The position numbers and the translations under genes are program-made. From the sequence record MN850564.1: DNA of 64,000 bases; one strand, given 5' to 3'. Origin of the DNA: Escherichia phage humlepung. This document shows positions 1,141-40,198 of this stretch, one piece after another (the stretch's first letter is position 1; each line of letters begins with the position of its first letter). The notes below the pieces were generated by a model. That model was given only the letters and a program-made list of their open reading frames with translations. It searched no databases and had not been told where the DNA came from.

Positions 1141-1202
1141 AAGGATAGATATTTTGTTCACATATGATGGTGACCCAGAGGTTGGGACAACCGATAAAAT
1201 TT

Positions 1203-1240: not shown

Positions 1241-1248
1241 AAGATATT

Positions 1249-1800: not shown

Positions 1801-1854
1801 ATTCGCTACCTTCTAAGTTTCTACAAAGGGGCTATCAAGTAACCCCTCAAGTTA

Positions 1855-2079: not shown

Positions 2080-2155
2080 TACTTAGTCTCTCCATAGGCA
2101 TCTTTTAAGATTGCCTTGTTAATCATTTCAGCGATTGCAAAACGAACACATACAG

Positions 2156-3416: not shown

Positions 3417-3488
3417 ATCTACTCTCCAGAAACTAAAAAGGGAACTACCTCTCGATAGCTCCCATCATAATCAATATTATATACTCGG

Positions 3489-5489: not shown

Positions 5490-5540
5490 AGTTTTCTCCT
5501 TAGAAAATAAAAAAGGCTCCCGAAGGAGCCTATGAAGATA

Positions 5541-7257: not shown

Positions 7258-7280
7258 TAAATATCCTTATAAATAGTTAA

Positions 7281-7296
7281 AGGGGCATCAGCCCCT
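7281..7296 (-). terminator. Hairpin AGGGGCatcaGCCCCT, possible terminator between minus-strand genes
   Basis: Perfect 6-bp GC stem with T-rich tract on minus strand. Confidence 0.35.
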
Positions 7297-7304
7297 ATTC
7301 ACAC

Positions 7305-7895
7305 TTAAGCTTTGGTCTTAAGTAGGTTCTTAAGTTTTTTAAGATTCATACTCTCATCAAACTTAAAACCAAATCCATTGACATAATCAATGAACTCGGA
7401 TTTCTTACTAAGTGACAATGCGTAACTCATATCAAAGTTCTTACTTGTTTCTGCGTCTGGACTAGAGTTCACATCAAATGAAATTTCTGTAGGCTCTTGC
7501 TTACTTTTTCTCATATTATCAACCAACAAACATGTATAGTTTGCTGGATAGAAGTTTACACTACCATCAACGTAGCTGTACTTATTATTATGGATAAGGT
7601 TGGAAAATACCTTAAGGAATGTTTCTGAGTCGTGGCAAACAAGTTTGAATTGGCTGCTCTCTCCAAGCGCAACTAATGAGTACGGACTTTCACTATCAAA
7701 GTCATAATTTAGATTCGATGCCGTCACTGTTACACGCATCAAGTTATTAGCAATAGTCTTCTGTTTAAAAGAATTTTGAACATAGTGAAGACCTCTATCA
7801 CACTGATTGACTAGCTCTTTAAGCAGGTCATTTGCATATGGCGAATTAATTGATACAGAGCCATCACTATTGTAATTAAAACTTACTGTTAACAT
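7305..7895 (-). CDS. hypothetical protein (196 aa)
   Basis: ORF. Confidence 0.5.
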   Translation of the reverse strand: MLTVSFNYNSDGSVSINSPYANDLLKELVNQCDRGLHYVQNSFKQKTIANNLMRVTVTASNLNYDFDSESPYSLVALGESSQFKLVCHDSETFLKVFSNLIHNNKYSYVDGSVNFYPANYTCLLVDNMRKSKQEPTEISFDVNSSPDAETSKNFDMSYALSLSKKSEFIDYVNGFGFKFDESMNLKKLKNLLKTKA

Positions 7896-8122
7896 TTTTC
7901 AGTTCTCCTGCGATTTATAATTTTGCTGCAATAGAGAAACGAAGTAAACTCACTGGAAGAAACTACTAAGTGTTGTTCACTAGATTGAGCCATTGCCCTG
8001 AAATACATTCCAGTCAAAGCATCATAGTGACTATTCTTTCCAATTGAGGTTATATAGCCATGACTCTTTGCAGTTTGATATAAATCTATAATATCTGCGA
8101 TTTCTAATTGGGAACTACACAT
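7889..8122 (-). CDS. hypothetical protein (77 aa)
   Basis: ORF. Confidence 0.35.
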   Translation of the reverse strand: MCSSQLEIADIIDLYQTAKSHGYITSIGKNSHYDALTGMYFRAMAQSSEQHLVVSSSEFTSFLYCSKIINRRRTEKC

Positions 8123-8364
8123 AGATAATCCTCTTGTCTTCTGTAATTTTGAAAGAACAGGTACAGACCAATTTCAGAGGATGAATAGTAGAGTAACTCT
8201 ACCCTTTTTGATTCCTTACAGTGATTGGTATTTTTACCTTTCTTCGGGTTGTTTGATTTTCTCATTAAGTCTCCTTTGTAGAACAAGGCAGACCTACAGC
8301 TTTAAGTAAGATGGTACAGTAATCCATACAACAAGTCAAGAACTATTGCAAGTTAAAAAAGTTG

Positions 8365-8394
8365 TTGACAAAGTACTTGACAAGGTGTAGGCTT
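8365..8394 (+). promoter_or_regulatory. Conserved promoter/operator element TTGACAAAGTACTTGACAAGGTGT (copy 1), -35 TTGACA + 17 nt + TAGGCT
   Basis: Near-identical element at 48838-48861; both sit at minus-to-plus strand switch points. Confidence 0.55.
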
Positions 8395-8514
8395 ATAAAT
8401 ACTTAGAAGATAACTTAAAAGGTTCCTCTAAAAAGGCTATTTAAACAGATATCTTTCTGGATATCTATCTTTTATCTTAAAAGCCTTTTAAGAGGTCTTA
8501 TAAGAGGCATACCA

Positions 8515-8886
8515 ATGAAAAACAGAACAAACAAAGGCCAGTTTAAAAAAGGCCAGTCTGGAAACCCATCTGGAAGACCAAAAGGCTCTCGTAACAAAAG
8601 CTCACTCGTAAAAGCTCAACTGACCATTGATAATTCTGCTGAGTTTGCTGCAAAGTTGTTTGAAGCGATTGTTACAAGGGATGCTGCTAAGCTTGCAGAG
8701 TTCGGGTTAAACACAGATGACGTAACCATCAAGAGTATGATTGAGGTTGGTAAAACTATCTTTACTCACTCAGCAGGTGAGATGAAAGCACTTGCAGCAG
8801 ACACTAAGAAGACTCCTGATAATGGTGGTCAACAGCAGACAGATAACAAACCAACGTTCTCTGCTGTAGCGACTCTCAAAAAATAA
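8515..8886 (+). CDS. conserved phage protein with GQSGNPSGRPKG motif (DUF5681-like by recollection)
   Basis: ATG with AAGAGG RBS; N-terminal basic GNPxGRPKG motif. Confidence 0.55.
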   Translation: MKNRTNKGQFKKGQSGNPSGRPKGSRNKSSLVKAQLTIDNSAEFAAKLFEAIVTRDAAKLAEFGLNTDDVTIKSMIEVGKTIFTHSAGEMKALAADTKKTPDNGGQQQTDNKPTFSAVATLKK

Positions 8887-8898
8887 TTTTAAAAGGTG

Positions 8899-8934
8899 TT
8901 GACAGACTCTATAAAGTTGCTCTAAAGTCTGTCA
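8899..8934 (+). promoter_or_regulatory. Sigma70-like promoter (TTGACA-18-TAAAGT) embedded in 9-bp inverted repeat TGACAGACT/AGTCTGTCA
   Basis: Consensus -35, plausible -10, dyad symmetry spanning the promoter; upstream of 8968 gene. Confidence 0.45.
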
Positions 8935-8967
8935 CATCAAACAACAAATGAGAGAAGAGAGTAAAAT

Positions 8968-10383
8968 ATGAGCGAATTATTTAAACATGCGCACCTTCAT
9001 GCAGGTCGAACTGAAAATGGTGCTGTAAACCATACTTCATCAATGTCTGCTCTTGTAGACTTTTACAAAGCTGCTGGTTCGAGCCGTAGCAATGTAGAAA
9101 TCTTACCAGACCTGTTCTACAAAGCTTTGCGTGAGGATGTTGATGTTGCAGTTCGTATTTTACTGCATATGCGAGATGTACGAGAAGGTATGGGTGAGCG
9201 TAAAGCTTTCCGAACTGTTTTACTTAAAGCAATTGAAGATAAGATTTTAGAACCTACACAGGTTCTTCGCATTATGGATAAGATTGCAGAACTTGGTCGT
9301 TTTGATGACTTCAAAATCTTCGTAGGTACTCGTTTTGAGACAGATGCCTTCAAACATTTAGAAGCAGCATTACTAGACCCTGCAACAGCAGGTTTGGCGG
9401 CTAAGTGGTTACCACGAGTCAAACCACGTCATAAGCAGTTTGTAAAACGTTTCTGCAAGTTTGCCAACTTGAGTGAGAAAGAGTACCGCACACTGTTGTC
9501 TGCACTATCTGATACAGTTGAGCAAAAAATCTCTGCTAATGAGTTTGGTAAGATTGACTACAGTAAGATTCCTTCACTTGCTGCTGCACGTTACCAAAAA
9601 CTGTTTAACCGTAAAGATGGAGAGCGTTACAAAGCTTACATCGAGTCCTTATCAAAAGGTGAGACTAAGATTAACGCTGGTGCTGTTTACCCATACGATG
9701 TGATTAAATCTGTCAAGTATGGTAATGCAGATGTTGCTAATGAGCAGTGGAAAGCACTACCAAACTGGATGGCAGAAGGTGAAAACATCTTGTGTATGTC
9801 TGATGTATCAAGTTCAATGTCTTGGGTGAATTTTGGCTCCATTACTGCTCTGGATATTGGTGTATCACTTGCCTTGTATGTAGCAGAACGCAATACAGGT
9901 TGCTTTAAGAATGAGTTAATGGTTTATTCAACAAACCCTCACTTCATCGAACTGAGTGGTGATTTACGAAACCGTCATCGTCAGGTGATGCGACACGTTG
10001 AATATGGCTCAACTAACTTACAAGCAGCTTTTGACCGCATTCTTGAAACAGGTAAAAGAAACAACTTGACTCAGAAAGATATGCCAAGTAAGCTTATCAT
10101 CTTCTCCGATATGGAGTTCAATCAGGTTGATGGAGCTAACGGTCGTACAAACTTTGAAGCAATTCAGAGTAAGTACAAAAAAGCTGGATATGAGATGCCA
10201 CAACTGGTATTCTGGTACTTAGCAAACCGTAATGGTACTTGCGAAGTATCTGTTAAGGATAACGGTGTAGCAATGGTATCAGGGTTCTCTCCAGCCACTT
10301 TAAAAGCTCTGCTTGGTGGTGAGAAGTTTGACCCAATCAGTGTAATGCTCAAAGCAGTAATGATTGACCGTTATATCTGGTAA
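8968..10383 (+). CDS. Ro60/TROVE-like protein with C-terminal von Willebrand factor A domain (DUF2828-like N-terminus by recollection)
   Basis: MIDAS-like DVSSSMS...T...IIFSDMEFN resembling Ro60 vWA (DVSASM / FTDCETN); N-terminal TENGA...S..ALVDFY motif. Confidence 0.6.
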   Translation: MSELFKHAHLHAGRTENGAVNHTSSMSALVDFYKAAGSSRSNVEILPDLFYKALREDVDVAVRILLHMRDVREGMGERKAFRTVLLKAIEDKILEPTQVLRIMDKIAELGRFDDFKIFVGTRFETDAFKHLEAALLDPATAGLAAKWLPRVKPRHKQFVKRFCKFANLSEKEYRTLLSALSDTVEQKISANEFGKIDYSKIPSLAAARYQKLFNRKDGERYKAYIESLSKGETKINAGAVYPYDVIKSVKYGNADVANEQWKALPNWMAEGENILCMSDVSSSMSWVNFGSITALDIGVSLALYVAERNTGCFKNELMVYSTNPHFIELSGDLRNRHRQVMRHVEYGSTNLQAAFDRILETGKRNNLTQKDMPSKLIIFSDMEFNQVDGANGRTNFEAIQSKYKKAGYEMPQLVFWYLANRNGTCEVSVKDNGVAMVSGFSPATLKALLGGEKFDPISVMLKAVMIDRYIW

Positions 10384-10402
10384 AAAGTTTTAAAAAGGGT
10401 AT

Positions 10403-10431
10403 TGACAATGTGTTTAATACCCTTTAATATG
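10403..10431 (+). promoter_or_regulatory. Sigma70-like promoter TTGACA-17-TAATAT inside inverted repeat AAGGGTATT/AATACCCTT
   Basis: Exact -35 consensus, 17-nt spacer, TAATAT -10; upstream of tRNA array. Confidence 0.6.
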
Positions 10432-10548
10432 TTCTACATAGAAGCGAAATGAGAGCTTTTCTAAGATACTGAAAAATATTTTAAAAAAGTTCTTGACAAC
10501 CACTAAAAAATAATGTTAAAGTGGTTACATAGAGTTTGAAAAGTTTAT

Positions 10549-10625
10549 CTCTGTTTAGCTCAGCTTGGTAGAGCGTTCCGTTTGGGGCGGTAAGGCCGGA
10601 GGTTCAAGTCCTCCAACAGAGACCA
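10549..10625 (+). tRNA. tRNA-Pro (anticodon TGG)
   Basis: 7-bp acceptor ctctgtt/aacagag, D-arm gctc/gagc, T-loop TTCAAGT, encoded CCA. Confidence 0.75.
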
Positions 10626-10632
10626 AATTAAT

Positions 10633-10710
10633 GTTCCAGTAGACAAAATGGTAAAGTCACCACTCTTTCAAAGTGGATATTTGAGGGTTCAAATCCCTTC
10701 TGGAACGCCA
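10633..10710 (+). tRNA. tRNA-Glu (anticodon TTC)
   Basis: Acceptor gttccag/ctggaac, anticodon loop cTTTCaa, T-loop TTCAAAT, CCA. Confidence 0.7.
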
Positions 10711-10715
10711 GTTTT

Positions 10716-10791
10716 GACAGAAGACCAATTACAGCAAACTTAATCTTATTCATCTGAAGGTAAATCGGACAAAGAAGAGATTTGGTCTGGT
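10716..10791 (+). repeat. Structured repeat element copy a (5' GACAGAAGACCA ... 3' TGGTCTGGTC)
   Basis: Member of four-copy family with conserved CAGAAGACC...TACAGCAA...GGTCTGG and covarying flanks. Confidence 0.5.
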
Positions 10792-10801
10792 CATTAAGAA
10801 T

Positions 10802-10878
10802 TGCGGGTATAGAGAAAGGGCGTCTCACATGTCTCATTAGCATGGTATCGGCAGGTTCGACTCCTGCACCCGCCTCCA
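10802..10878 (+). tRNA. tRNA with CAT anticodon (Met or Ile2)
   Basis: Anticodon stem catgt/gcatg, loop cTCATta, T-loop TTCGACT, CCA; 1:72 mismatch. Confidence 0.6.
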
Positions 10879-10882
10879 ATTT

Positions 10883-10946
10883 TGCAGAAGACCGTATTCA
10901 GCAACAAAATACTTTTTGCGGATAAAAGAAAAAACACGGTCTGGCA
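10883..10946 (+). repeat. Structured repeat element copy b (5' TGCAGAAGACCGT ... 3' ACGGTCTGGCA)
   Basis: Same family; flank covariation tGC/GCa. Confidence 0.5.
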
Positions 10947-10955
10947 ATGTATTAA

Positions 10956-11029
10956 GGTTAGGAAGCACATAAGGTATGTGCGGTCGCCTGTTAAGCGAAT
11001 GGCACAGGGTTCGAATCCCTGACTAACCG
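10956..11029 (+). tRNA. tRNA-Asn (anticodon GTT)
   Basis: Anticodon loop ctGTTaa, T-arm caggg-TTCGAAT-ccctg, acceptor 6/7 paired; no encoded CCA. Confidence 0.65.
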
Positions 11030-11040
11030 CAAAATTAAAT

Positions 11041-11128
11041 GTGTCGTTATCCCGTAGATGGTAGCGGTGGGGACTGTAAATCCCTTGTCATTGAGACTCG
11101 GTAGGTTCGACTCCTACACGGCACACCA
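11041..11128 (+). tRNA. tRNA-Tyr (anticodon GTA), type II with long variable arm
   Basis: 85 nt, acceptor gtgtcgt/acggcac, loop ctGTAaa, T-loop TTCGACT, CCA. Confidence 0.7.
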
Positions 11129-11133
11129 ATAAA

Positions 11134-11210
11134 GGCTATGTAGTTTAACTGGAGAAAATACTCCCCTGTCACGGGAGATGATGTGAGTTCAAGTCTCATC
11201 GTAGCCGCCA
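11134..11210 (+). tRNA. tRNA-Asp (anticodon GTC)
   Basis: Acceptor ggctatg/cgtagcc, loop ctGTCac, T-loop TTCAAGT, CCA. Confidence 0.7.
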
Positions 11211-11237
11211 ATTTTGAGAGGGCTATTTAGCCCCTCC

Positions 11238-11272
11238 CTTAAAGAGTTCTTACGAGTATTCTTTAAGGGAGC
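11238..11272 (+). repeat. Hairpin CCCTTAAAG-(agTTCTTACGAGtatt)-CTTTAAGGG
   Basis: 9-bp perfect stem; loop motif TTCTTACGAG recurs at 14277-14286. Confidence 0.5.
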
Positions 11273-11348
11273 AGAAGACCAAATACAGCAAGAATGTATG
11301 AAATTTCAAGCCAATTTAATTTTGAAAATTTAAAACTTGGTCTGGCTC
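11269..11348 (+). repeat. Structured repeat element copy c (5' GAGCAGAAGACCAA ... 3' TTGGTCTGGCTC)
   Basis: Same family; flank covariation GAGC/GCTC. Confidence 0.5.
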
Positions 11349-11354
11349 AACAAA

Positions 11355-11493
11355 TTTACAGAAGGCCGTTTACAGCAAAACTTAAACAATCTATTTCTCC
11401 GGTAAAGAAAAGGCGAAGGTTCGATTCCTTCACTCGGCAGATGTCGAGTTGGTGTAATGGTAGCACTTAAGATGATAAACAACGGTCTGGTAA
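11355..11493 (+). ncRNA. Candidate structured ncRNA (element copy d): terminal stem TTACAGAAGGCCGTT/AACGGTCTGGTAA enclosing tRNA-like T-arm and D-arm hairpins
   Basis: Internal gaagg-TTCGATT-ccttc hairpin with T-loop consensus, acceptor-like hairpin, D-arm-like gtgtAATGGTAgcac; no complete tRNA fold. Confidence 0.3.
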
Positions 11494-11639
11494 TTACCTT
11501 TGTAGATAAGTTATTAAGCTTACTTGTGAGTATGCGACCACAAAGGGTGAATGGGTAAATTCTAGATTTAAACCCAAAAAGGCACATCGCTACAGACCTT
11601 AAGCAAGTCTGGGTAGCTTATCTACAAAGATAATTTAAT

Positions 11640-11715
11640 GGAAGTGTAGCAGAATGGTGATGCGGCAGACTTTTAATCTGACAGGCGATGGGTTCGAATC
11701 CCTCCACTTCTACCA
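11640..11715 (+). tRNA. tRNA-Lys (anticodon TTT)
   Basis: Acceptor ggaagtg/cacttct, loop cTTTTaa, T-loop TTCGAAT, CCA. Confidence 0.65.
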
Positions 11716-11719
11716 ATAT

Positions 11720-11796
11720 GGTTCAGTCGCAGATAAGGTAATGCAAGGGTCTCATAAGCCCTATGAATGTGGGTTCGATTCCCATCTGAACCTCCA
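11720..11796 (+). tRNA. tRNA with CAT anticodon (Met or Ile2), second copy
   Basis: Perfect acceptor ggttcag/ctgaacc, loop cTCATaa, T-arm gtggg-TTCGATT-cccat, CCA. Confidence 0.65.
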
Positions 11797-11797
11797 A

Positions 11798-11873
11798 GCT
11801 GGTATAGTTAAGAAGGTTATAACACTCCCCTGATAAGGGAACATCGGTGGTTCGATTCCACCTACCAGTACCA
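11798..11873 (+). tRNA. tRNA-Ile (anticodon GAT)
   Basis: Loop ctGATaa, T-arm ggtgg-TTCGATT-ccacc, CCA. Confidence 0.65.
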
Positions 11874-11888
11874 ATTTCAATAAAGTTG

Positions 11889-11917
11889 TTGACATTGAGA
11901 TGTGACTACTTTATAGT
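11889..11917 (+). promoter_or_regulatory. Sigma70-like promoter TTGACA-17-TATAGT inside the tRNA region
   Basis: Exact -35, 17-nt spacer, TATAGT -10. Confidence 0.55.
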
Positions 11918-12121
11918 AACCTTAGTTTTCGTTGCGTAGCGTCTATTTTGCAAATTTAAAATAAATGCAAACGACAATGTTTTTCTGGCAGTAGCTTGAT
12001 AGGCTAAACACCAGTGAGGTCTTCCAATCCCTCATCAAAGAATTTGGCGTACTCGCCCACGGTATGATTAATAAGGTGGGCATCTTTAAGGGCTTTCTAA
12101 GAGAGTCTTTAAAGATAATTA

Positions 12122-12203
12122 CGGGGCGTATCTCAGCGGTCTTCTAAACCGCCGTTAACCGAGTAAGTGGAGTATGCGGGTTCGAGTCCTGCCGCCTCGA
12201 CCA
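12122..12203 (+). tRNA. Atypical tRNA-like gene, anticodon stem-loop gcggt-cTTCTaa-accgc (TCT, Arg-like), no recognisable D-arm, 23-nt extra segment
   Basis: 7-bp acceptor cggggcg/cgcctcg, T-arm gcggg-TTCGAGT-cctgc, CCA; only 7 nt between acceptor and anticodon stem. Confidence 0.4.
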
Positions 12204-12346
12204 ATTTAGTTAGCAGATTACTTAGACGACCTTAGCGGGTCTTCCTGTAGGGAGGTGGTCTGTATCTCATGTTTTCCAGAACATGTAAATAATCTGAGAA
12301 GGGGCTTTACAGTGTTGAGATAATACGGTAAGCTTCGAATTATAGT

Positions 12347-12429
12347 ATGGGACGATATTAAGACTCTAAGGCATGAGCAACGGCTTCCAACACCGTTTCA
12401 AAGGGGTTCAACTCCTCCGTCCCATGCCA
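12347..12429 (+). tRNA. Atypical tRNA-like gene, anticodon loop compatible with CCA (Trp) closed by a C-A pair, or 9-nt loop
   Basis: Perfect acceptor atgggac/gtcccat plus CCA, T-loop TTCAACT; D-region irregular. Confidence 0.35.
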
Positions 12430-12442
12430 AAGTCTTATTAGG

Positions 12443-12530
12443 GGTAGGTAGCGGCTAATGGTAGCCAAACTGTCTTGAAAACAGTTGCCACTGTAGAGAT
12501 ACGGTGAGGGTTCGACTCCTTTACTTACCG
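12443..12530 (+). tRNA. tRNA-Ser (anticodon TGA), type II
   Basis: 88 nt, stem actgt/acagt with loop cTTGAaa, long variable arm, T-loop TTCGACT. Confidence 0.65.
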
Positions 12531-12787
12531 CCTAATAAGATTTAAAGCCAAGCTTCATTCGGATGTTGCTTTGGTATACCGCGTGTATTGTTGTACGCAC
12601 TGATAAAGCACCTAGTAGGTGTCACGGAGAAGAGATAATATCAAGCTCTCCAAAGGTTCTAGTCACCGGATTAAACAAGACTATGCAAAGACCTTTTTAG
12701 GTCTTTTTAGAGGGCTTCTAAGGTTATTACAGCTTGTTGTGGAACCTTGTTGCTTAGGTTCTTAGAAGTTCTCTAAAAAGATTTAAT

Positions 12788-12865
12788 GGGAGATTGACGG
12801 TAATTGGTAAACCTACCATCCTTAGAAGTTGGTGTTTGAGGGTTCGAATCCCTTGTCTCCTACCA
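12788..12865 (+). tRNA. tRNA with TAG anticodon (Leu-type anticodon but short, type-I length)
   Basis: Acceptor gggagat/gtctcct with G-U pairs, loop ctTAGaa, T-arm gaggg-TTCGAAT-ccctt, CCA. Confidence 0.5.
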
Positions 12866-12872
12866 AATTAAT

Positions 12873-12948
12873 GCAGGTGTAGCAAAATGGTTATGCGGCT
12901 GACTCTTAATCAGTAAGACGATGGGTTCAATTCCCTCCACCTGTACCA
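12873..12948 (+). tRNA. tRNA-Lys (anticodon CTT)
   Basis: Stem gctga/tcagt, loop ctCTTaa, T-loop TTCAATT, CCA. Confidence 0.55.
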
Positions 12949-12954
12949 GACATT

Positions 12955-13030
12955 GGGGTCATAGTTTATATGGTTAAAATTCGAGTTTTGCAAACTTGGG
13001 AACTGAGTTCAATTCTCAGTGACTCCACCA
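12955..13030 (+). tRNA. tRNA-Ala (anticodon TGC)
   Basis: G3:U70 wobble pair in acceptor (Ala identity element), loop ttTGCaa, T-arm ctgag-TTCAATT-ctcag, CCA. Confidence 0.75.
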
Positions 13031-13036
13031 ATTAGT

Positions 13037-13111
13037 GCATCCATAGTTTAAACGGGAAAATTACAGTCTTCCAAACTGAGGTTGAGGGTTCGATTCCCTC
13101 TGGATGCTCCA
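13037..13111 (+). tRNA. tRNA-Gly (anticodon TCC)
   Basis: Perfect acceptor gcatcca/tggatgc, loop ctTCCaa, T-arm gaggg-TTCGATT-ccctc, CCA. Confidence 0.7.
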
Positions 13112-13117
13112 AACAAT

Positions 13118-13194
13118 GCTGCTTTCGTATAATTGGCTATTACACATCCCTTGTAAGGATGGAAATGCAGGTTCGAGTCCTGTGAGCAGCACCA
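13118..13194 (+). tRNA. tRNA-Thr (anticodon TGT)
   Basis: Perfect anticodon stem catcc/ggatg, loop ctTGTaa, T-loop TTCGAGT, CCA. Confidence 0.75.
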
Positions 13195-13199
13195 ATTCA

Positions 13200-13283
13200 G
13201 AGGTCAAGTGAAAGACCGCTGGTGTCAACTGAAGACCGTAACAAATTCCACGGAGTTGAGTTAGCGGCACAACTTCAGACCTC
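13200..13283 (+). repeat. Stem element AGAGGTC...GACCTCT enclosing a GAAGACCGTAAC motif
   Basis: 7-bp terminal inverted repeat; internal CTGAAGACCGTAACAAA resembles the 5' arm of elements a-d. Confidence 0.4.
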
Positions 13284-13289
13284 TTTCAC

Positions 13290-13364
13290 ACTCGCTTAGT
13301 TTATATGGTAAAACACCACCCTTACAAGATGAAGAAAAAGGTTCAAGTCCTTTAGTGAGTACCA
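13290..13364 (+). tRNA. tRNA-Val (anticodon TAC), tentative isotype
   Basis: Acceptor actcgct/agtgagt, loop cTTACaa, perfect T-arm aaagg-TTCAAGT-ccttt, CCA; anticodon stem has mismatches. Confidence 0.55.
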
Positions 13365-13365
13365 T

Positions 13366-13443
13366 GTTCCAGTATCCCAATTGGCAGAGGATGCAAGCTC
13401 AAACCTTGTATTAGTGACGGTTCGAATCCGTCTTGGAACACCA
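13366..13443 (+). tRNA. tRNA with CAA anticodon (Leu-type anticodon, type-I length)
   Basis: Acceptor gttccag/ttggaac, stem gcaag/cttgt, loop ctCAAac, T-arm gacgg-TTCGAAT-ccgtc, CCA. Confidence 0.55.
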
Positions 13444-13462
13444 ATTTAAAGAGGCTATTTAG

Positions 13463-14020
13463 ATGAGATATTTGAAGTATGCTTCATGGATTTTCCTAGC
13501 TTTACTAGAGCCATTTGCAGCAACCCTAGCAGTCATCTTAGCACCTTTCGTAGTTCCATTCTACAGTGAGAAGAAAGGACACTTACCTTTCGGGTTCAGA
13601 TGGATGGAGACATATGACAACCCAATTGATGGTGATGAAGGTCACGTTAAAAGATGGGCTAATATTAGATGGATTGGTAAACTAGGTGTCTACATGCAAA
13701 GAGTTGGATGGCTCTGGAGAAACAAAGCTTATAACTTCTCTTACCATGTATTAGGAAGAGATGTAAAAGATGTTACTAAGTGGAAAGGTAATATCAACGT
13801 AAGTTCTAACCCTGAAGATAATCAGACTGGTTATCTCCTAATGTGGAACAGGAATGCTTGGGGATTATTCGCTTTTATCCCATCAATTAAAATCTTTGGT
13901 AAACAATTTTACTGGAGAATTTATATTGGATGGAAACTAAAAAGTGTTGTCCCAGAAGAAAGAGCATTCTCAAGGGAAAGAGTTATGTTGGCATTCTTTA
14001 TTCATCCACTGAGAAAGTAA
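13463..14020 (+). CDS. hypothetical membrane protein (185 aa, Trp-rich) encoded inside the tRNA array
   Basis: ATG with AAAGAGG RBS; N-terminal hydrophobic segment. Confidence 0.55.
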   Translation: MRYLKYASWIFLALLEPFAATLAVILAPFVVPFYSEKKGHLPFGFRWMETYDNPIDGDEGHVKRWANIRWIGKLGVYMQRVGWLWRNKAYNFSYHVLGRDVKDVTKWKGNINVSSNPEDNQTGYLLMWNRNAWGLFAFIPSIKIFGKQFYWRIYIGWKLKSVVPEERAFSRERVMLAFFIHPLRK

Positions 14021-14028
14021 AGATTTAA

Positions 14029-14104
14029 AGGGGATTAGTTTACAAGGTTAAAACCTCGGTCTTTGAAATCGAAGAAGTTGGTTCAATTCCAACATCCCCC
14101 GCCA
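14029..14104 (+). tRNA. tRNA-Gln (anticodon TTG)
   Basis: Loop ctTTGaa, perfect T-arm gttgg-TTCAATT-ccaac, CCA; 1:72 mismatch. Confidence 0.6.
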
Positions 14105-14106
14105 AT

Positions 14107-14185
14107 GCTCCATTACTCCAATTGGCAGAGAGGCCAGACTTAAAATCTGTGTTATGTATCGGTTCGAATCCGATATGGAGTACCA
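14107..14185 (+). tRNA. tRNA with TAA anticodon (Leu-type anticodon, type-I length)
   Basis: Loop cTTAAaa, T-arm atcgg-TTCGAAT-ccgat, CCA; D-arm resembles the CAA tRNA. Confidence 0.5.
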
Positions 14186-14190
14186 AATTT

Positions 14191-14266
14191 AGCGGTATAG
14201 CATAACTGGCAATGCAGCAGTCTCTGAAGCTGTCTTATTAAGGTTCAAATCCTTATGCCGCTGCCA
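14191..14266 (+). tRNA. tRNA-Gln (anticodon CTG), tentative
   Basis: Acceptor agcggta/tgccgct, D-stem gcat/atgc, loop ctCTGaa, T-arm taagg-TTCAAAT-cctta, CCA. Confidence 0.55.
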
Positions 14267-14267
14267 C

Positions 14268-14294
14268 TTCTAAGGATTCTTACGAGAGTCCTTA
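14268..14294 (+). repeat. Hairpin with loop motif TTCTTACGAG (second copy)
   Basis: aaggaTTCTTACGAGagtcctt; motif shared with 11250-11259. Confidence 0.45.
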
Positions 14295-14297
14295 AAT

Positions 14298-14373
14298 GTG
14301 GCCTTATCATAAATGGTAATGACCCATGCTGTGAACATGGTCTATACGGGTTCAAATCCCGTAGGTCACCCCA
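14298..14373 (+). tRNA. tRNA-His (anticodon GTG)
   Basis: Perfect anticodon stem ccatg/catgg, loop ctGTGaa, T-arm acggg-TTCAAAT-cccgt, CCA. Confidence 0.7.
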
Positions 14374-14379
14374 ATTTAT

Positions 14380-14455
14380 AGTCCAAGTAGCTTATATGGT
14401 TAAAGCGCGTGTCTGAAAAACATGAGAAGAGGGTTCAAATCCCACTGGACTACCA
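14380..14455 (+). tRNA. tRNA-Phe (anticodon GAA)
   Basis: D-stem gctt/aagc, loop ctGAAaa, T-loop TTCAAAT, CCA; acceptor register uncertain by 1 nt. Confidence 0.6.
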
Positions 14456-14471
14456 ATTTCAAAGGTGCTTA

Positions 14472-15206
14472 ATGAAAGAGATGACAGAACAAGGTAAGGA
14501 GATTTTTAATCTCTTAAAAACCGGTAAAGGGTTTTCTAACCCACTTATTACTGGTGCAGCAGTTCTCGGTGGAACCGTAGCTGCCTCTACATCACTTGTA
14601 AGCTCTATTAGCTCTGTAACAGACCCTACAATGAAGGAGAAGCTTGTTGCTGCTGGACTTACAACAGTCCTTCTAAACAGCTTTACAACAATCCTGACAA
14701 GCACTACAGCAACCACTAAGACCCTAACAGACTACGGTCAAAAGTCTATTGATGAGTTTTCATCACGTATGCAGGTAGCAAAGGGATATTCCAATGTTAT
14801 GGGTGCAGCAGGAGAACAAGTTGGTTGTACACCATTCAGTGGTATTATGGGTGTTGCTACAGAGTATGGTCAAAAAGCTATTGACATGATTAACAGTACA
14901 CTAGATAGTGTTAATGGTGTGTTAAGTGACTTACAAGACGCTATTGATGAGGGTCTTGATACTGTTTCTGATTTAGCTAATCAGGCTGTTAGTAAGATTA
15001 ATGAAGGTATTTCAAAGATTACAGCTTATGCAGATGAAGTTGTGCAGATGATTGAAGAAGAAGCTGCCCTTATTGCAGAGTACCTTAAAACGAATATCAA
15101 TGGGTTCTTAGCAGGTATCTTACCAGACTGGTTTGATGATGCTTGTAAAACTGGTGTAATTGATGCTATTGCAACACCAGAAATGAAGAACGCATTACAG
15201 AAATAA
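14472..15206 (+). CDS. hypothetical protein (244 aa, Ala/Thr/Ser-rich)
   Basis: ATG at 14472 with AAAGG RBS; the track start at 14409 would overlap tRNA-Phe. Confidence 0.5.
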   Translation: MKEMTEQGKEIFNLLKTGKGFSNPLITGAAVLGGTVAASTSLVSSISSVTDPTMKEKLVAAGLTTVLLNSFTTILTSTTATTKTLTDYGQKSIDEFSSRMQVAKGYSNVMGAAGEQVGCTPFSGIMGVATEYGQKAIDMINSTLDSVNGVLSDLQDAIDEGLDTVSDLANQAVSKINEGISKITAYADEVVQMIEEEAALIAEYLKTNINGFLAGILPDWFDDACKTGVIDAIATPEMKNALQK

Positions 15207-15207
15207 T

Positions 15208-15300
15208 GGAAGATTAACCCTAAAAGGTAAGGGAGCAGTTTGCTAAACTGCCAGTAGCTGAGAAATCGGTGTACCAGTTCAAGTCTGGTATCTTCCTCCA
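15208..15300 (+). tRNA. tRNA-Ser (anticodon GCT), type II
   Basis: Perfect acceptor ggaagat/atcttcc, stem gcagt/actgc, loop ttGCTaa, long variable arm, CCA. Confidence 0.7.
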
Positions 15301-15304
15301 ATTT

Positions 15305-15380
15305 GAATCCGTGACAGAAATGGCTATGTGCCTGTCTGCAAAACAGGTTTATAAGGGTTCGAGTCCCTTCGGATTCTCCA
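15305..15380 (+). tRNA. tRNA-Cys (anticodon GCA)
   Basis: Perfect acceptor gaatccg/cggattc, stem cctgt/acagg, loop ctGCAaa, T-arm aaggg-TTCGAGT-ccctt, CCA. Confidence 0.75.
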
Positions 15381-27081: not shown

Positions 27082-35079
<7,998 letters not shown>

Positions 35080-35081
35080 TA

Positions 35082-36230
35082 ATGGCAGTAGGTGAAATTC
35101 AAATTAGTGCCTTGCCTCAAGCAGCCTTACCAATTGACCTTAGTGATATCTTCCATCTTAAACAAGGTATCGAGGATAAAAGATGTACTCTTGAGCAATT
35201 ACTTGCTCCACACTCAAGCCTAAGAAATAACCCTCATGGTGTTACTAAGACACAAATTGGTTTAGATAACGTTATTAATGCTCTCCAGTTAGTCGCTGAA
35301 AATAACTTATCAGACATTGTTAATGTAGCTGAGGCAAGAGCAAATCTACAGATTATGTCTTCAGAAGAGGTTAATAATCTTATTCAACAGCATATTGATG
35401 ATAAGAGCAACCCACACAATACTACTAAGGCACAGGTTGGGTTAAGCAATGTTCAGAACTGGGTGACATCTAACCTTTATAATGAGGATGCGGATAAGTA
35501 TGCTACAGCAAGAGCAGTAAATAACTTGTACAAGGCTGTTCAGGCTTCTTATCCAGTAGGTACTATCCATCTTTCTATGAATCCTGCAAACCCCTCTACA
35601 TATTTAATTTGTGGAGGTACTTGGGAGTTAGTCTCAAAAGGGAGAGCACTTGTAGGTTATGATAGTGATTCTAGGCCAGTTGGTTCAACGTTTGGTTCAC
35701 AGACTACTGCATTGACGGTTAATAACATCCCTGCACATACCCACTCAGTGTATGTCACTGGTGGTGGTCACACTCATGGTGCAACGGCCTCTATCAGTGC
35801 TTTTGATTATGGCACTAAAGGGACTACAACGTTTGACTACGGAACCAAGACCGTATCTACTTACGACTATGGCAACAGAACAACAAGTGCCGCTGGCTTA
35901 ACACAAACAACATTCATTAACCGTGGCTATGCTGATGGTGGCTGGAGAGGTTTATCGGTTGAGGGGGCAAGCTATGACCCAAGAGCTACGTTGACAACAG
36001 CTAACAACCACACTCACTCTGTAGCAATTGGTGCGCATAATCATACGGTTGGTATTGGTGCTCACAGCCATTCTGTTGCAATTGGTTCCCACAGCCACTC
36101 AGCAACAGTAACAGTAACCGGAGCAGGTGAGCATTCGCACTCTGGCACAACTGGTCCAACTGGTTCTGGTCAAGCATTTAGTGTTGAACAGCCATCCTTC
36201 GTATTGTATGTATGGCAGAGAACAGCTTAA
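35082..36230 (+). CDS. tail fibre protein with C-terminal His-x-His repeat domain
   Basis: Repeats HTHS/HNHT/HSHS and C-terminal ...FVLYVWQRTA shared with 36277-38616 product. Confidence 0.6.
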   Translation: MAVGEIQISALPQAALPIDLSDIFHLKQGIEDKRCTLEQLLAPHSSLRNNPHGVTKTQIGLDNVINALQLVAENNLSDIVNVAEARANLQIMSSEEVNNLIQQHIDDKSNPHNTTKAQVGLSNVQNWVTSNLYNEDADKYATARAVNNLYKAVQASYPVGTIHLSMNPANPSTYLICGGTWELVSKGRALVGYDSDSRPVGSTFGSQTTALTVNNIPAHTHSVYVTGGGHTHGATASISAFDYGTKGTTTFDYGTKTVSTYDYGNRTTSAAGLTQTTFINRGYADGGWRGLSVEGASYDPRATLTTANNHTHSVAIGAHNHTVGIGAHSHSVAIGSHSHSATVTVTGAGEHSHSGTTGPTGSGQAFSVEQPSFVLYVWQRTA

Positions 36231-36239
36231 TTTCTTTAC

Positions 36240-36260
36240 AGGGGCTGTATAGCCCCTTTT
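36240..36260 (+). terminator. Terminator hairpin aggggctgtatagcccct + TTTT
   Basis: Perfect 7-bp stem and T-run between the two tail fibre genes. Confidence 0.55.
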
Positions 36261-36276
36261 AAGAGGAAAATTTATA

Positions 36277-38616
36277 ATGGCAGATTACAAGTTGAGTGAA
36301 TTAAACTCAATCGACACAATCCGTTCAGACGACCTTCTCCATGTCAGGGTTAAAAAGAGACCTGAAATGTTAGGTGATGAAGACCGTCGAATGACCTATC
36401 AAGACTTCTTAGCGTCTTTTAAACTAGAAAGATTTGTTCAGATTGCTGGTAGCACTATGACGGGTGACTTAGGAATTGTCAAGTTACTTTATGGTGGTAA
36501 GGCAGTATTTGACCCTACAGACTCTTCTGAGATTACTATGGGGGATGTTTTAAAGGCTTTTAAAATCAATGCAAACGGTCTTAAACTAACTATTGCAGAT
36601 GCTTCAAGGTCTGCAACTGTTTATCATACTCTGAATAAGCCAAGCCCTAATGAACTTGGGATGAGAACTAATGAAGAGAATGACGCAAGATATGCAAGGT
36701 TGGCTGTTACAAACACATTTAACTCTAAACAGACCATTGTAGCAAATGGGGAACAGTTAACACTAAGGTCTCCTGTGAGTGGGGATAGAGCATACTCTGC
36801 TATTGTAGGTAGGGATGCAAGTAATGAAAAAACTTGGGCTATTGGGAACCTGATTAGGGGTAGTCTTGATGTTCAAATCGAGAGTAAACTAGGTTCCATC
36901 CTCACTCTAGGCACGGCTGCTTCTTTTAATAGGTCTTTATCAATCAATGGTCAAGTGCAACCTTCTGACTTCTCTAACTTGGATGCAAGATACTTCACAC
37001 AGACAGCAGCTAATCAGAGATTTGCACAGCTAGTTGGCAATAACACCTTCAGGGGTATTAACAATTTTGTAGGAGAGTTCAATATCACCAGAGATAACGC
37101 TGTGCTAGTCATTAAGAATGCCACTGCTGCAACTGGACTATACTTGCTGGGGCAGAAGGCTGATGGGACAAACAAGTTCTACTTAGGGACTGATAACTCT
37201 GATTCTGCAGTCAACCTACATAACTACACCACGAGTACAACTATCTCTTTGTCAAATGTGATTACCACTACTAAGACTGTGAAAATCACTGGTCAAGTTC
37301 AGCCTTCAGATTGGGCTAACATTGACTCTAGATACATTCCAGCAGCAACATTAAGTACAATTGCAAGAACTAATGCAAGTAACACGTTCACTGCAAAGCA
37401 GGTTATTAACACTAATGGTGAAGCTCTTGTGTTACAAGGAAAAACAACCGCCGCACTTTACATTAGGGGTAAGGACTATGATGGAACGAATAGGTGGTAT
37501 GTTGGCAATGATGACGGTAGTGACACTGTTAGTTTGTATAACTATAAAACTGGTAAAAACCTAAGCATTGGTTCCGAAGTATCAATTAATGCAAACTTAG
37601 TAATTGGTGGTCAAGTACAACCTAGCAACTTCACAAACTTTGATGCAAGGTATTACGGTAAAGCCGAAGCCGATTCAAAGTATTTCTGGTCAGCATTCAG
37701 AGCTTCGAAGACCGAGGCTGCTGGTGGTGTGGCTTGGGACCAACCATCAGGAATCTATCTTGAGACAAAATCTAGCGGGCAAAACCGTTTAGTCTTGCAC
37801 ATGGCCTCTAATGCGAAAGCCCTAACACCATCTGCACAATTAAGATTTGAATCGAAAAATGGTGGGATGTGGTACAGGTCAGCCAGAGACACACTTGGCT
37901 TTGAGGTTGAATGGTCTAAGGTTTACACTGAAGCTCAGAAACCTACCCCTTCAGAGATTGGTGCATACACTAAAGCTGAAACTGACCAGAAGATTGCAGA
38001 AGCAATTAGTGACTCTACAGACCTGAATAAAATCTATCCAGTAGGTATTGTGACGTGGTTTAACAGTAATGTTAACCCTAATACAGCACTGCCTGGCCTA
38101 ACTTGGACGTATCTGAAGAATGGTGTTGGTAGGACTATTAGAATTGCAGCAGCAAATGGTTCAGATGTTGCTACAACTGGTGGTTCAGATTCTGTAACGT
38201 TAGCTGTTGGTAACTTACCTTCGCACACGCACAGTTTTTCTGCGACTACCTCATCGTTTGACTACGGAACAAAAAACACTAACACGACTGGTGCTCACAC
38301 TCACTCTGTAAGTGGCTCTACTTCATCTGCTGGTAACCACAACCATTCCATTTCGTGGATTGGTCAGAACTCTACACACTACTCTGGTGGTGGTGGTGGT
38401 AGTATTGGTGTAGGACCGGGTTACACCGATGTTAACGGTGCTCACACCCACTCCGTAAGTGGTACTGCCGCTTCTGCTGGTAACCATGCTCACAGTGTTG
38501 GTATTGGTGCTCACAGTCATACAGTAAGTGGTAACACTGGTGGTACAGGTTCTGGTTCAGCATTTAGTGTTACTAACCAGTTCTACAAGTTAATGGCTTG
38601 GGTGAGAACTGCTTAA
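36277..38616 (+). CDS. long tail fibre protein with C-terminal His-x-His repeat domain
   Basis: 779 aa; internal GQVQPS(D/N)F repeats; C-terminal HTHS...HAHS...HSHT repeats ending KLMAWVRTA. Confidence 0.65.
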   Translation: MADYKLSELNSIDTIRSDDLLHVRVKKRPEMLGDEDRRMTYQDFLASFKLERFVQIAGSTMTGDLGIVKLLYGGKAVFDPTDSSEITMGDVLKAFKINANGLKLTIADASRSATVYHTLNKPSPNELGMRTNEENDARYARLAVTNTFNSKQTIVANGEQLTLRSPVSGDRAYSAIVGRDASNEKTWAIGNLIRGSLDVQIESKLGSILTLGTAASFNRSLSINGQVQPSDFSNLDARYFTQTAANQRFAQLVGNNTFRGINNFVGEFNITRDNAVLVIKNATAATGLYLLGQKADGTNKFYLGTDNSDSAVNLHNYTTSTTISLSNVITTTKTVKITGQVQPSDWANIDSRYIPAATLSTIARTNASNTFTAKQVINTNGEALVLQGKTTAALYIRGKDYDGTNRWYVGNDDGSDTVSLYNYKTGKNLSIGSEVSINANLVIGGQVQPSNFTNFDARYYGKAEADSKYFWSAFRASKTEAAGGVAWDQPSGIYLETKSSGQNRLVLHMASNAKALTPSAQLRFESKNGGMWYRSARDTLGFEVEWSKVYTEAQKPTPSEIGAYTKAETDQKIAEAISDSTDLNKIYPVGIVTWFNSNVNPNTALPGLTWTYLKNGVGRTIRIAAANGSDVATTGGSDSVTLAVGNLPSHTHSFSATTSSFDYGTKNTNTTGAHTHSVSGSTSSAGNHNHSISWIGQNSTHYSGGGGGSIGVGPGYTDVNGAHTHSVSGTAASAGNHAHSVGIGAHSHTVSGNTGGTGSGSAFSVTNQFYKLMAWVRTA

Positions 38617-38695
38617 TCCCTTGTTGACTGATTGTTAAGATGGTGTTAATATTCTTTATGGGTATTCTCACCATCTTGGCTGATGAGGTGATTAA

Positions 38696-38890
38696 ATGCC
38701 TACAATCCTAGCAATTCTTCTAAAAAATCTAGGTAGCTTCTTCTGGAAACTCATTTTATCCCTTCTAAGTGAATACATGATTGAGAAAGTGTTCTTTAAG
38801 CTTGCAAGATACCTTGCGAGTAAGACAGACACACCTATTGATGATGAGTTCGTAGATAACTTAGAAAAAGCTTTTAAGGGAGAGAAATAA
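38696..38890 (+). CDS. small hydrophobic protein (64 aa), possible holin-like or fibre-assembly protein
   Basis: ATG with GAGGTG RBS; N-terminal hydrophobic segment. Confidence 0.35.
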   Translation: MPTILAILLKNLGSFFWKLILSLLSEYMIEKVFFKLARYLASKTDTPIDDEFVDNLEKAFKGEK

Positions 38891-39262
38891 ATGAAGTGGC
38901 TAGAGGAAGCTTTTAAAAATAATATTGGTGCAATTGTAGTTGGTATTTTTAGTGTTATCGGAATGTATACCACTATGCAGGTTTCAAGTGGTAAACAAGA
39001 AGTGTCTGTCACAACAAAGTTACAGCAGTTGGATAATTATTCCAAAAGTAACTATTCAGCTATTCGTGATTTACAGTCTGACATGAGACTGATTCAGCTA
39101 GGGATGGAGAACCAGAAAGTTCAGTTAGAGAATGTTAAGGGTGAAAACGCAAAACTTACCAAAACTCTTGATAAATTCTCTGACAGTGTGAACAATCTGG
39201 CTCAATCAGTATCAGCCTTGCAAGCTATTACTGAGAAGAACACAAAGAATACTGAAAAATAA
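38891..39262 (+). CDS. membrane-anchored coiled-coil protein (123 aa), possible i-spanin-like
   Basis: N-terminal transmembrane segment IGAIVVGIFSVIGMY then helical Gln/Leu-rich region. Confidence 0.35.
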   Translation: MKWLEEAFKNNIGAIVVGIFSVIGMYTTMQVSSGKQEVSVTTKLQQLDNYSKSNYSAIRDLQSDMRLIQLGMENQKVQLENVKGENAKLTKTLDKFSDSVNNLAQSVSALQAITEKNTKNTEK

Positions 39263-39267
39263 AGTTT

Positions 39268-39295
39268 AAGGCTCCTTTTTACGGGAGCCTTTTTT
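39268..39295. terminator. Bidirectional terminator ggctcc-tttttacg-ggagcc flanked by A-run and T-run
   Basis: Sits between convergent genes ending at 39262 (+) and 39299 (-). Confidence 0.6.
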
Positions 39296-39298
39296 GTT

Positions 39299-40198
39299 TT
39301 ACTTACCTACTGACAGAGGTGCTTCAATCTTCCCTGCATGTTGGTAGTTGTTAATGCCGCCAATAAAATCACTTGCAGTAAGATGTTTTAAGTCACTTAA
39401 AGTGTTAAGTGGTACACCAATCTCAAAAGTAGGTGCATGGAACTCTTCGTTGTTCATCAGTTCATAAACCTGCTTCATATGATTCTGATAAATCTGAGTA
39501 TCCCCAAAGACACCTATCAAGTATCGTGGAGTGTACCCAGTCATCTTACAAAGAACTTCCAGAATAAAACCATAAGACGCAATATTAAACGGAAGTCCTA
39601 AAAAGGTGTCTACAGAACGTTGATACCATTGTAAGTCAACTTCACCTTCGTTGGTGATATAAATCTGAAACAGAACATGACAAGGTGCTAAAGCCATTGA
39701 GTTTGCTGCAATATCTGCTGCATTCCAAGCATTAACAAGCATGTAACGGTCTGTGATATCACCTTTCATCTTCGTTACTAAGGTTTCTAACTGGTCTACA
39801 ACACAACCATTATGACCTTCAAAGTTTCTCCACTGAACCCCGTAGATTCTACCACCTGCATCTTCTAACCAGTCTTGTTCAGAGGAATAATTAGAGCTTA
39901 ACCAGCGTTTAAAATCATCTGACCAGATAGTCCAGCGTTCTCCATCATTTTCACCCCAAGTACGATAACGGAGTTCACCAAGTTTATTCTCACCATTCAG
40001 GAACCATAAAGCTTCCCCAATAACTTGCCGTGTAAACACCTGTTTAGATGTTAAGAGTGGAAAACCAGTACGCATGTCAAAACGAAACTGTGGTGGAGCA
40101 AATGCAGAGATAACATCTCCAGTTCGTGTAGTACGCAGTTCGCCAACAGATAAAACATGGTTCAGGATATTTTTGTAACTCAAATCAGCTTGTGACAT
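39299..40198 (-). CDS. thyA: thymidylate synthase
   Basis: Active-site region ALAPCH and overall ThyA-like sequence; 299 aa. Confidence 0.9.
   Translation of the reverse strand: MSQADLSYKNILNHVLSVGELRTTRTGDVISAFAPPQFRFDMRTGFPLLTSKQVFTRQVIGEALWFLNGENKLGELRYRTWGENDGERWTIWSDDFKRWLSSNYSSEQDWLEDAGGRIYGVQWRNFEGHNGCVVDQLETLVTKMKGDITDRYMLVNAWNAADIAANSMALAPCHVLFQIYITNEGEVDLQWYQRSVDTFLGLPFNIASYGFILEVLCKMTGYTPRYLIGVFGDTQIYQNHMKQVYELMNNEEFHAPTFEIGVPLNTLSDLKHLTASDFIGGINNYQHAGKIEAPLSVGK

Follow-up and report, generated by a model that had tools for sequence, protein, structure and literature searches.

Two published systems are closest to the pair of adjacent tail-fibre genes analysed here, which lies at positions 35082-38616 of a 64,000-nt stretch of the genome of Escherichia phage humlepung (MN850564.1; the whole stretch is called the window below). 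The first is Escherichia phage JohannRWettstein (Bas63), which was studied by cryo-electron microscopy (cryo-EM; Sci Adv 2025). In that study, gp26 forms the short fibre (430 Å) and gp27 the long fibre (630 Å), both with T4 gp37-like tips consisting of a collar, a needle with His-x-His (HxH) motifs, and a head (PMC12609058). The two fibres carry seven and six di-histidine motifs, respectively; the short fibre sits on wedge 2A and the long fibre on a platform trimer of gp25 (PMC12609058). The second is Shigella phage Sf14 (Mooglevirus), whose gp52 and gp53 were reported as "two long tail fibers" (Commun Biol 2025; PMC11821841). The authors described a domain resembling the gp10 C-terminus and a gp37-like distal tip, and found chaperone homologues to be absent (PMC11821841). 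In T4 gp37 itself, collar D10 comprises residues 811-881 and 1010-1026, needle D11 comprises residues 882-1009, and the tip spans residues 932-959 (PMC6957217). The needle holds seven iron atoms, and the substitutions H929A/H931A are lethal; the gp37 tip has been described as an iron-stiffened needle whose tip binds lipopolysaccharide (LPS) or OmpC (PMC6957217).

In the present study, we found that the two genes of the window very probably encode the short and long fibres of a Felixounavirus, which are old paralogues with N-terminal anchors of their own and T4 gp37-type receptor-binding tips. The two-fibre arrangement with gp37-like tips is real but already known, because the Bas63 and Sf14 papers describe it and the proteins examined here are close orthologues. 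A first-pass annotation of the window had proposed two receptor-binding proteins on one scaffold, which agrees with the cryo-EM description of the near-identical Bas63 orthologues; that description takes in all the features that the annotation had pointed out. Our analysis covered the gene structure, the homology with the T4 tip, the register of the HxH boxes, the orthology with Bas63, how old the paralogy is, and which segments vary and which are conserved. It adds little to the published descriptions of two-fibre, gp37-like HxH tips in Bas63 and Sf14; the gain lies in residue-level boundaries for the collar, the ascending and descending needle, the head, and the collar-return tail.

The locus resembles that of Bas63 in gene order, in the HxH counts (seven and six), and in the type of N-terminal baseplate-binding domain; between the two phages, the short fibres are 97.9% identical, the long fibres 70.2%, and the platform proteins 99%. 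The differences are found in the long fibre, where identity is 40-53% along the shaft (aa 141-470) and 81% in the head segment, and the HHxH motif of Bas63 (H692, H693, and H695) is aligned with NHNH here. The database record of Bas63 (MZ501086) gives the name "long tail fiber protein" to the 382-aa product and "tail fiber protein" to the 784-aa product, which is the reverse of the cryo-EM naming. Sf14 shares with the present phage a two-fibre locus in a sister genus; the fibres of two Moogleviruses, Sf18 and Mijalis, were 69-71% (short) and 53% (long) identical to those of the window. It differs in genus and in its heads, and in the Sf14 paper the receptor-binding-like domain lies midway along the shorter fibre and not at its tip (PMC11821841).

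Two fibre genes with a common gp37-type tip

The short-fibre gene (35082..36230, 382 aa) and the long-fibre gene (36277..38616, 779 aa) were located exactly where the first-pass annotation had placed them. They lie on the same strand (+, as do all fibre segments given below) and are separated by 46 nt. The short-fibre product, an orthologue of Bas63 gp26, matched phrog_2097 ("tail fiber protein", E = 2e-128), and the long-fibre product, an orthologue of Bas63 gp27, matched phrog_4277 over its full length with 1264 bits. We found seven HxH motifs in the short fibre, starting at aa 219, 230, 310, 319, 328, 337, and 351, and six in the long fibre, starting at aa 650, 674, 688, 723, 737, and 746. 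When each protein was shuffled 20,000 times, the mean number of motifs was 1.0 for the short and 0.35 for the long fibre, and the observed counts were never reached. None of the other open reading frames (ORFs) of at least 100 aa in the window contained more than two HxH motifs. The C-termini read FVLYVWQRTA in the short fibre and YKLMAWVRTA in the long fibre; both fit (Y/F)xLxxWxRTA, so that the annotated combination of multiple HxH repeats and a conserved tail was present in both products.

The two tips were then compared with each other. In BLASTP, residues 157-382 of the short fibre and 587-779 of the long fibre were aligned with 31% identity and a composition-adjusted E of 2e-14. Because the tip region is compositionally biased, Smith-Waterman scores were compared with those of 500 shuffles in which the composition was kept. 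The last 120 aa gave z = 10.7 and the whole tips z = 17.9, while the non-repetitive collar alone gave z = 10.1 and the last 35 aa gave z = 15.3; in each of these four comparisons, none of the 500 shuffles reached the score. The similarity of the C-terminal 120 aa, the absence of which had been named as grounds for abandoning the idea of a shared tip, is thus significant. The common module is real, but 120 aa is too short a measure of it: the module begins at the YPVG collar motif and takes up approximately 226 aa in the short and 193 aa in the long fibre. The N-terminal regions gave z = 3.6, with 2/500 shuffles reaching the score, which is too weak to claim sequence homology between the baseplate-binding domains.

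Both tips also matched the solved structure of the T4 gp37 tip (2XGF) in phmmer searches, the long fibre over aa 581-758 (E = 3e-17) and the short fibre over aa 146-352 (E = 4e-14). The HxH boxes of T4 gp37 start at residues 883, 915, 929, 966, 980, 989, and 998. Six of these seven are matched in register in the long fibre, where the last T4 box is missing; the short fibre matches five and has two additional boxes that are specific to short fibres. Together, the 2XGF matches and the in-register boxes support homology between the HxH repeats and the iron-binding boxes of T4 gp37. The collar, the FDYGTK motif, the VGIGAHxHxV box, and the C-terminal R.A likewise align, the tail R and the final A being invariant with T4 gp37. 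A collar domain of the family found in T4 gp10, gp11, gp12, and gp37 was recognised in both proteins, in the short fibre by its Gp10_C domain and in the long fibre by the 2XGF alignment, which begins in the collar. The differences from T4 are as follows: identity over the aligned columns is 37-43%; T4 gp37 makes up the distal portion of a fibre built from four proteins (gp34-gp37), whereas here each fibre consists of one protein; and the short fibre lacks two ascending boxes but has two of its own, while the long fibre lacks the last box. In the 64-kb window, we found no homologues of T4 gp34, gp35, or gp36.

The short fibre, which is 99.5% identical to the Escherichia phage Andreotti protein, was divided into six parts. 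The N-terminal part (aa 1-154; 35082..35543) comprises the baseplate-binding region and two NPHxxTKxQ(I/V)GLxNV repeats. Its first 50 residues are 94-100% conserved across Felixounavirus and Mooglevirus, and in the Bas63 paper this N-terminal region is described as the baseplate-binding domain that is attached to wedge 2A (PMC12609058). The collar (approximately aa 155-218; 35544..35735) was aligned with T4 gp37 D10 residues 811-881; it scored 65.7 bits with Pfam Gp10_C (cut-off 27) and matched 2XGF and T4 gp10 chains in phmmer. It is followed by an ascending needle (aa 219-262; 35736..35867) with HxH boxes at 219 and 230 and (F/Y)DYGTK repeats. The head segment (aa 263-309; 35868..36008) is poor in His and only 26-34% identical to other short fibres, whereas the segments flanking it are 57-100% identical. 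Two ascending boxes near the head are missing here, HTH being replaced by RTT and HSH by INR, and most other short fibres carry nine HxH boxes versus the seven observed in this one. The descending needle (aa 310-355; 36009..36146) contains five HxH boxes, and the C-terminal collar-return segment (aa 356-382; 36147..36227) was aligned with T4 gp37 residues 1010-1026. In a set of 20 fibre sequences, the tail residues W378, R380, and A382 were conserved in at least 90%.

The long fibre, which is 98.5% identical to the Andreotti protein, was divided into eight parts. Its N-terminal baseplate-binding region (aa 1-140; 36277..36696) is 90-100% identical within Felixounavirus, and the corresponding N-terminus in Bas63 docks on the platform trimer (PMC12609058). 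The shaft (aa 141-480; 36697..37716) is highly variable, with 38-78% identity between phages, and contains three repeats of the Pfam domain gp37_trimer (PF20744, E = 3e-49). Of the 13 amino acid differences between this long fibre and that of Andreotti, ten, with a 1-aa indel among them, lie at aa 367-464 (37375-37668), in the third gp37_trimer repeat; this cluster resembles a small patch of recombination or of local diversification. The next part (aa 481-584; 37717..38028) is a gp37_C/Mu gpS-like domain (Pfam PF12604, E = 1e-14), for which Pfam gives the extent aa 481-581. The collar (aa 585-649; 38029..38223), where the phmmer alignment starts at chain residue 23 of 2XGF, is 95-98% conserved within Felixounavirus. 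In Citrobacter phage BSwM KMM2 (3261-5636 of the stretch compared), the long-fibre gene is split into two coding sequences (596 and 189 aa) just upstream of the collar, owing to a frameshift, a stop codon, or an error in sequencing. The ascending needle (aa 650-690; 38224..38346) has HxH boxes at 650, 674, and 688, in register with T4 H883, H915, and H929, and leads to the head segment (aa 691-722; 38347..38442), which was aligned with the T4 tip subdomain 932-959 and is 16-81% identical between phages. The descending needle (aa 723-750; 38443..38526) has boxes at 723, 737, and 746 and a Pfam Phage_fiber repeat at aa 742-754. The C-terminal segment (aa 751-779; 38527..38613), which ends in YKLMAWVRTA, is 97-100% conserved within Felixounavirus.

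Based on these boundaries, a working model can be drawn, in which the trimer state, metal binding, attachment sites, and LPS as the receptor are taken from published work or by analogy. As in Bas63, wedge 2 would hold the short fibre, and the 100-aa platform protein, whose gene lies just upstream, would hold the long fibre. Each fibre would be a trimer, as expected from the T4 homology and the Bas63 structure. The chain would leave the collar, run out along a thin trimeric needle to a small head at the far end, and run back, with the (Y/F)xLxxWxRTA segment rejoining the collar at the chain end. The sequence fits this out-and-back layout, in which the needle would be inserted into the collar, in that HxH boxes lie on both sides of a variable middle and the tail aligns with T4 residues 1010-1026; for the Bas63 orthologues, the same topology was derived from AlphaFold models fitted into low-resolution density (PMC12609058). 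By homology with T4, where the metal ions of the homotrimer lie on the threefold axis, the three chains would together contribute six histidines per HxH box to bind one iron ion, thereby stiffening the needle, which predicts seven metal sites in the short fibre and six in the long fibre. The variable head would be the likely contact with LPS, and with two unrelated heads the virion would probably present two specificities at two reach lengths.

Two other named systems were considered. T4 gp12 has one HxH metal site and a related collar fold. The collar relationship is stated in PMC6957217. No T4 gp12 chain was among the Protein Data Bank matches at E ≤ 1 for either fibre protein, so the comparison with the gp12 tip that had been proposed alongside gp37 proved the weaker of the two; "short" refers to length only, and the short fibre is not a gp12 orthologue. 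A fibre of the Mu gpS or P2 gpH type was rejected, since only long-fibre aa 483-574 matched the Mu tail fibre S (8JU3; phmmer E = 9e-18) and no chaperone gene lies downstream, which limits the resemblance to the domain level.

Variable heads between conserved boxes

The head is the least conserved segment of each fibre, with 26-34% identity in the short and 16-81% in the long fibre; within the genus, identity in the anchors, collars, and tails is mostly 70-100%. The short-fibre head of the present phage was 100% identical in 32 phage records, for which the isolation host was nearly always E. coli K-12, DH5a, or C. A different head, the Felix O1-type head with the pattern GGRYGGDSIGGK.RVQVSGT.QVSS, was detected at 145 places in 86 records, of which 80 are Salmonella phages. 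In Felix O1, Sl26, and most Salmonella Felixounaviruses, this head is carried on both fibres. It was also found between His boxes in gp37 of the T4-like Salmonella phage Lv5cm and in the P2-like (gpH) fibre of Salmonella phage STYP1. In the stretches of sequence compared, the regions concerned are 711-4276 (Felix O1), 987-3773 (Lv5cm gp37), and 1456-3273 (STYP1 fibre). The two heads of the phage in the window are of E. coli type and are unrelated to each other. The LPS dependence of both Bas63 and Felix O1 has been reported (PMC8594841). Judged from its variability and from the link between head type and isolation host, the head is likely the specificity element; by analogy, it likely makes the LPS contact, and because its two heads are unrelated, the phage likely presents two specificities on its two fibres.

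The boundaries of the head were also visible at the DNA level. In a blastn comparison of the short-fibre gene with Felix O1, the identity broke off at 35852-36042 (aa 258-320), exactly between the FDYGTK and VGIGAHSH boxes. These two boxes are also among the DNA repeats that the two fibre genes have in common. An identity break at boxes common to both genes suggests that the head has been exchanged as a cassette. We lean towards the broader reading that the head is a portable cassette bounded by FDYGTK and (V/A)GIGAHxH, which moves between the fibres of one virion and between unrelated phage families. If this is true, exchange between paralogues would let Felixounaviruses alternate between "one specificity at two lengths" and "two specificities". 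We did not find this idea of head exchange between paralogues stated in the literature consulted, whereas modular fibre exchange in general is long established.

The nearest precedent is the conserved-box ("His box") recombination model for T-even gp37/gp38, which is said to go back to Tetart et al. in J Mol Biol in 1998. In both cases, conserved boxes coding for GxHxH flank variable specificity segments. The present case differs in that it concerns two paralogous fibres of one phage that is not T-even, and in that the same head crosses Felixounavirus, Tequatrovirus, and Peduovirus. For applied work, short-fibre aa 258-320 and long-fibre aa 691-722 would be natural swap units for re-targeting Felix O1-type phages between Salmonella and E. 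coli, and the conserved boxes flanking the heads could be used as junctions.

Role of the short fibre and age of the pair

Several points weigh against the assignment of two gp37-type receptor-binding fibres. With Pfam Gp10_C, the long-fibre collar scored only 23.1 bits, below the cut-off of 27. A single-sequence AlphaFold2 model of the long-fibre tip (aa 575-779) reached a mean predicted local distance difference test score (pLDDT) of 36 and a predicted template modelling score (pTM) of 0.17. This model was unusable; support for the topology, the trimer state, and the metal sites therefore comes from homology and from the published work with orthologues. In the Bas63 study, the density of the fibres was not good enough to show side chains, and the HxH-metal sites have therefore not been directly observed in any Felixounavirus (PMC12609058). 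Furthermore, T4 gp37 needs the chaperone gp38; a tblastn search with T4 gp38 gave no match below E = 0.7 in the 64-kb window (approximately 20 kb of the genome lies outside it), and none of the ORFs downstream of the long fibre is a chaperone gene. Folding must thus differ from that of T4 gp37 in some respect. Finally, the short-fibre head of Bas63 lies against the sheath, and part of the head conservation could therefore reflect docking and not receptor binding.

The last point leads to the strongest of the competing explanations, in which only the long fibre binds the receptor and the short fibre is mainly a structural brace or trigger along the sheath, its head being conserved for docking. 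The cryo-EM structure places the Bas63 short-fibre head between sheath domains D2 and D3 at ring 10 (PMC12609058), and the same explanation would fit the identity of the short-fibre head in the 32 phages mentioned above, among which the long-fibre tip varies more. However, the head type follows the isolation host, K-12-type E. coli versus Salmonella, and the Salmonella-type head is also present on the T4-like gp37 and the P2-like fibre, where there is no Felixounavirus sheath for it to dock on. In addition, the short fibre retains the full gp37-type tip architecture. We therefore consider a mainly structural short fibre improbable.

The preferred reading also holds that the paralogy of the two fibres is of long standing. 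Over the aligned columns, the short and long tips share 44% identity, and each shares 37-40% with T4 gp37. Neighbour-joining placed the short tips of Felixounavirus, Mooglevirus, and Kolesnikvirus in one clade and the long tips in another. At the DNA level, the two genes have only boxes of 15-50 nt in common, which code for FDYGTK, GAHTHSV, VGIGAHSH, and TGSGxAFSV. Judged from these comparisons, the two fibres are old paralogues. Erwinia phage Omen (Kolesnikvirus; 4542-10495 of the stretch compared) was observed to keep the short-fibre orthologue, with a gp37-like tip and six HxH motifs, and to have three different tail or fibre genes at the long-fibre position. Of the two fibres, the short one is therefore conserved more widely.

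The "recent host-range duplication" raised in the first-pass annotation, that is, a recent tandem duplication of one tip whose young copies are starting to diverge and extend the host range, is very unlikely in view of these results. The genes are indeed adjacent, on one strand, and alike in tip architecture and C-terminal tail, and the Salmonella relatives with one head on both fibres show that material moves between the genes. Yet the tips, at 31% identity by BLASTP and 44% over aligned columns, are no closer to each other than either is to T4 gp37. The short and long clades are separate across genera, a Kolesnikvirus has the short-fibre tip alone, and the DNA similarity is confined to the short boxes. 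Moreover, the short-fibre head of the present phage never occurs twice in a genome, being found in 43 records at one place each. The last possibility, that the tip similarity is a composition artefact of low-complexity C-termini rich in Gly, Ser, Thr, and His, is practically negligible: the needle is repetitive and compositionally biased, and tblastn with the 39-aa long-fibre head (which has a GGGGG run) returned no matches, probably owing to the low-complexity filter, but the composition-adjusted BLASTP match, the shuffles that never reached the score even for the collar or the last 35 aa alone, and the independent matches of both tips to 2XGF all speak against it.

Neighbouring genes and genome mosaic

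The window can be assigned to a Felixounavirus (Ounavirinae), a member of the Felix O1 group of myophages. A search with the 3.5-kb fibre locus matched 235 phage records, almost all of them Felixounavirus, and the locus was 98.9% identical at the nucleotide level to that of Andreotti. A 147-kb record named "Staphylococcus phage SA1" (GU169904) also contains Felix O1-like sequence. Nucleotide searches with other parts of the window gave different closest relatives, namely Salmonella phage Felix O1 (96.1%) for the replication module (39001-64000) and E. coli phage momo (98.0%) for the structural module (10001-35000). For these three regions, no record in the collection was at least 99% identical. 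By these nucleotide matches, the backbone of the window is a mosaic of Felix O1-like replication genes, momo-like structural genes, and Andreotti-like fibres. Together with the shared heads and the identity break, this agrees with the long-standing view that phages trade fibre tips at conserved boxes.

The gene order around the fibres is wedge 2, wedge 1, the 100-aa platform protein, short fibre, long fibre, a small ORF, and a holin-like ORF, followed on the opposite strand by the genes for thymidylate synthase and dihydrofolate reductase (td/frd). The synteny from the wedges to the holin-like ORF is kept in Andreotti, Bas63, Felix O1, Z31, Sl26, Mijalis, and Sf18; the full order through the opposite-strand td/frd was compared in Andreotti, Bas63, Felix O1, Z31, and Sl26 and was the same. 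Baseplate wedge 2 (32448..33917, +) contains a Pfam Baseplate_J domain (E = 5e-16), and its ORF of 489 aa equals Bas63 gp23 in length and position; by analogy with Bas63, it would be the attachment site of the short fibre. Baseplate wedge 1 (33920..34777, +; 285 aa), which matched phrog_4017 ("baseplate protein", E = 2e-175), equals Bas63 gp24 in length and position and would be the carrier of the platform. The long-fibre platform protein (34777..35079, +; 100 aa) matched phrog_4141 and is the orthologue of Bas63 gp25; the platform role of gp25, which is described as T4 gp9-like or homologous to it, was assigned in the Bas63 paper (PMC12609058). Downstream of the long fibre, the 64-aa ORF matched phrog_402, a family of unknown function; in Mijalis, the annotation of its counterpart reads putative cytoplasmic membrane protein. 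The next ORF, of 123 aa, matched phrog_4038 and is annotated as a holin in Andreotti.

A scan of 34600-39400 for promoters and terminators gave no more sites than expected by chance, and no terminator was found between the two fibre genes. The only convincing element was a strong bidirectional terminator hairpin at 39268-39291, between the holin-like ORF and the convergent thymidylate synthase gene. Upstream of the locus, the ORF of the central spike (31406-32029, 207 aa) gave no PHROG match at E ≤ 1e-5. Near its C-terminus, it contains H188-T-H190-H191; H188 and H190 correspond to the HxH motif that was proposed as the iron site of the puncturing apparatus in Bas63 (PMC12609058). In addition, a transfer RNA cluster was observed at 10549-15380 (+), with 24 genes for 18 amino acids, including two each for Met, Lys, Gln, and Ser and three for Leu.

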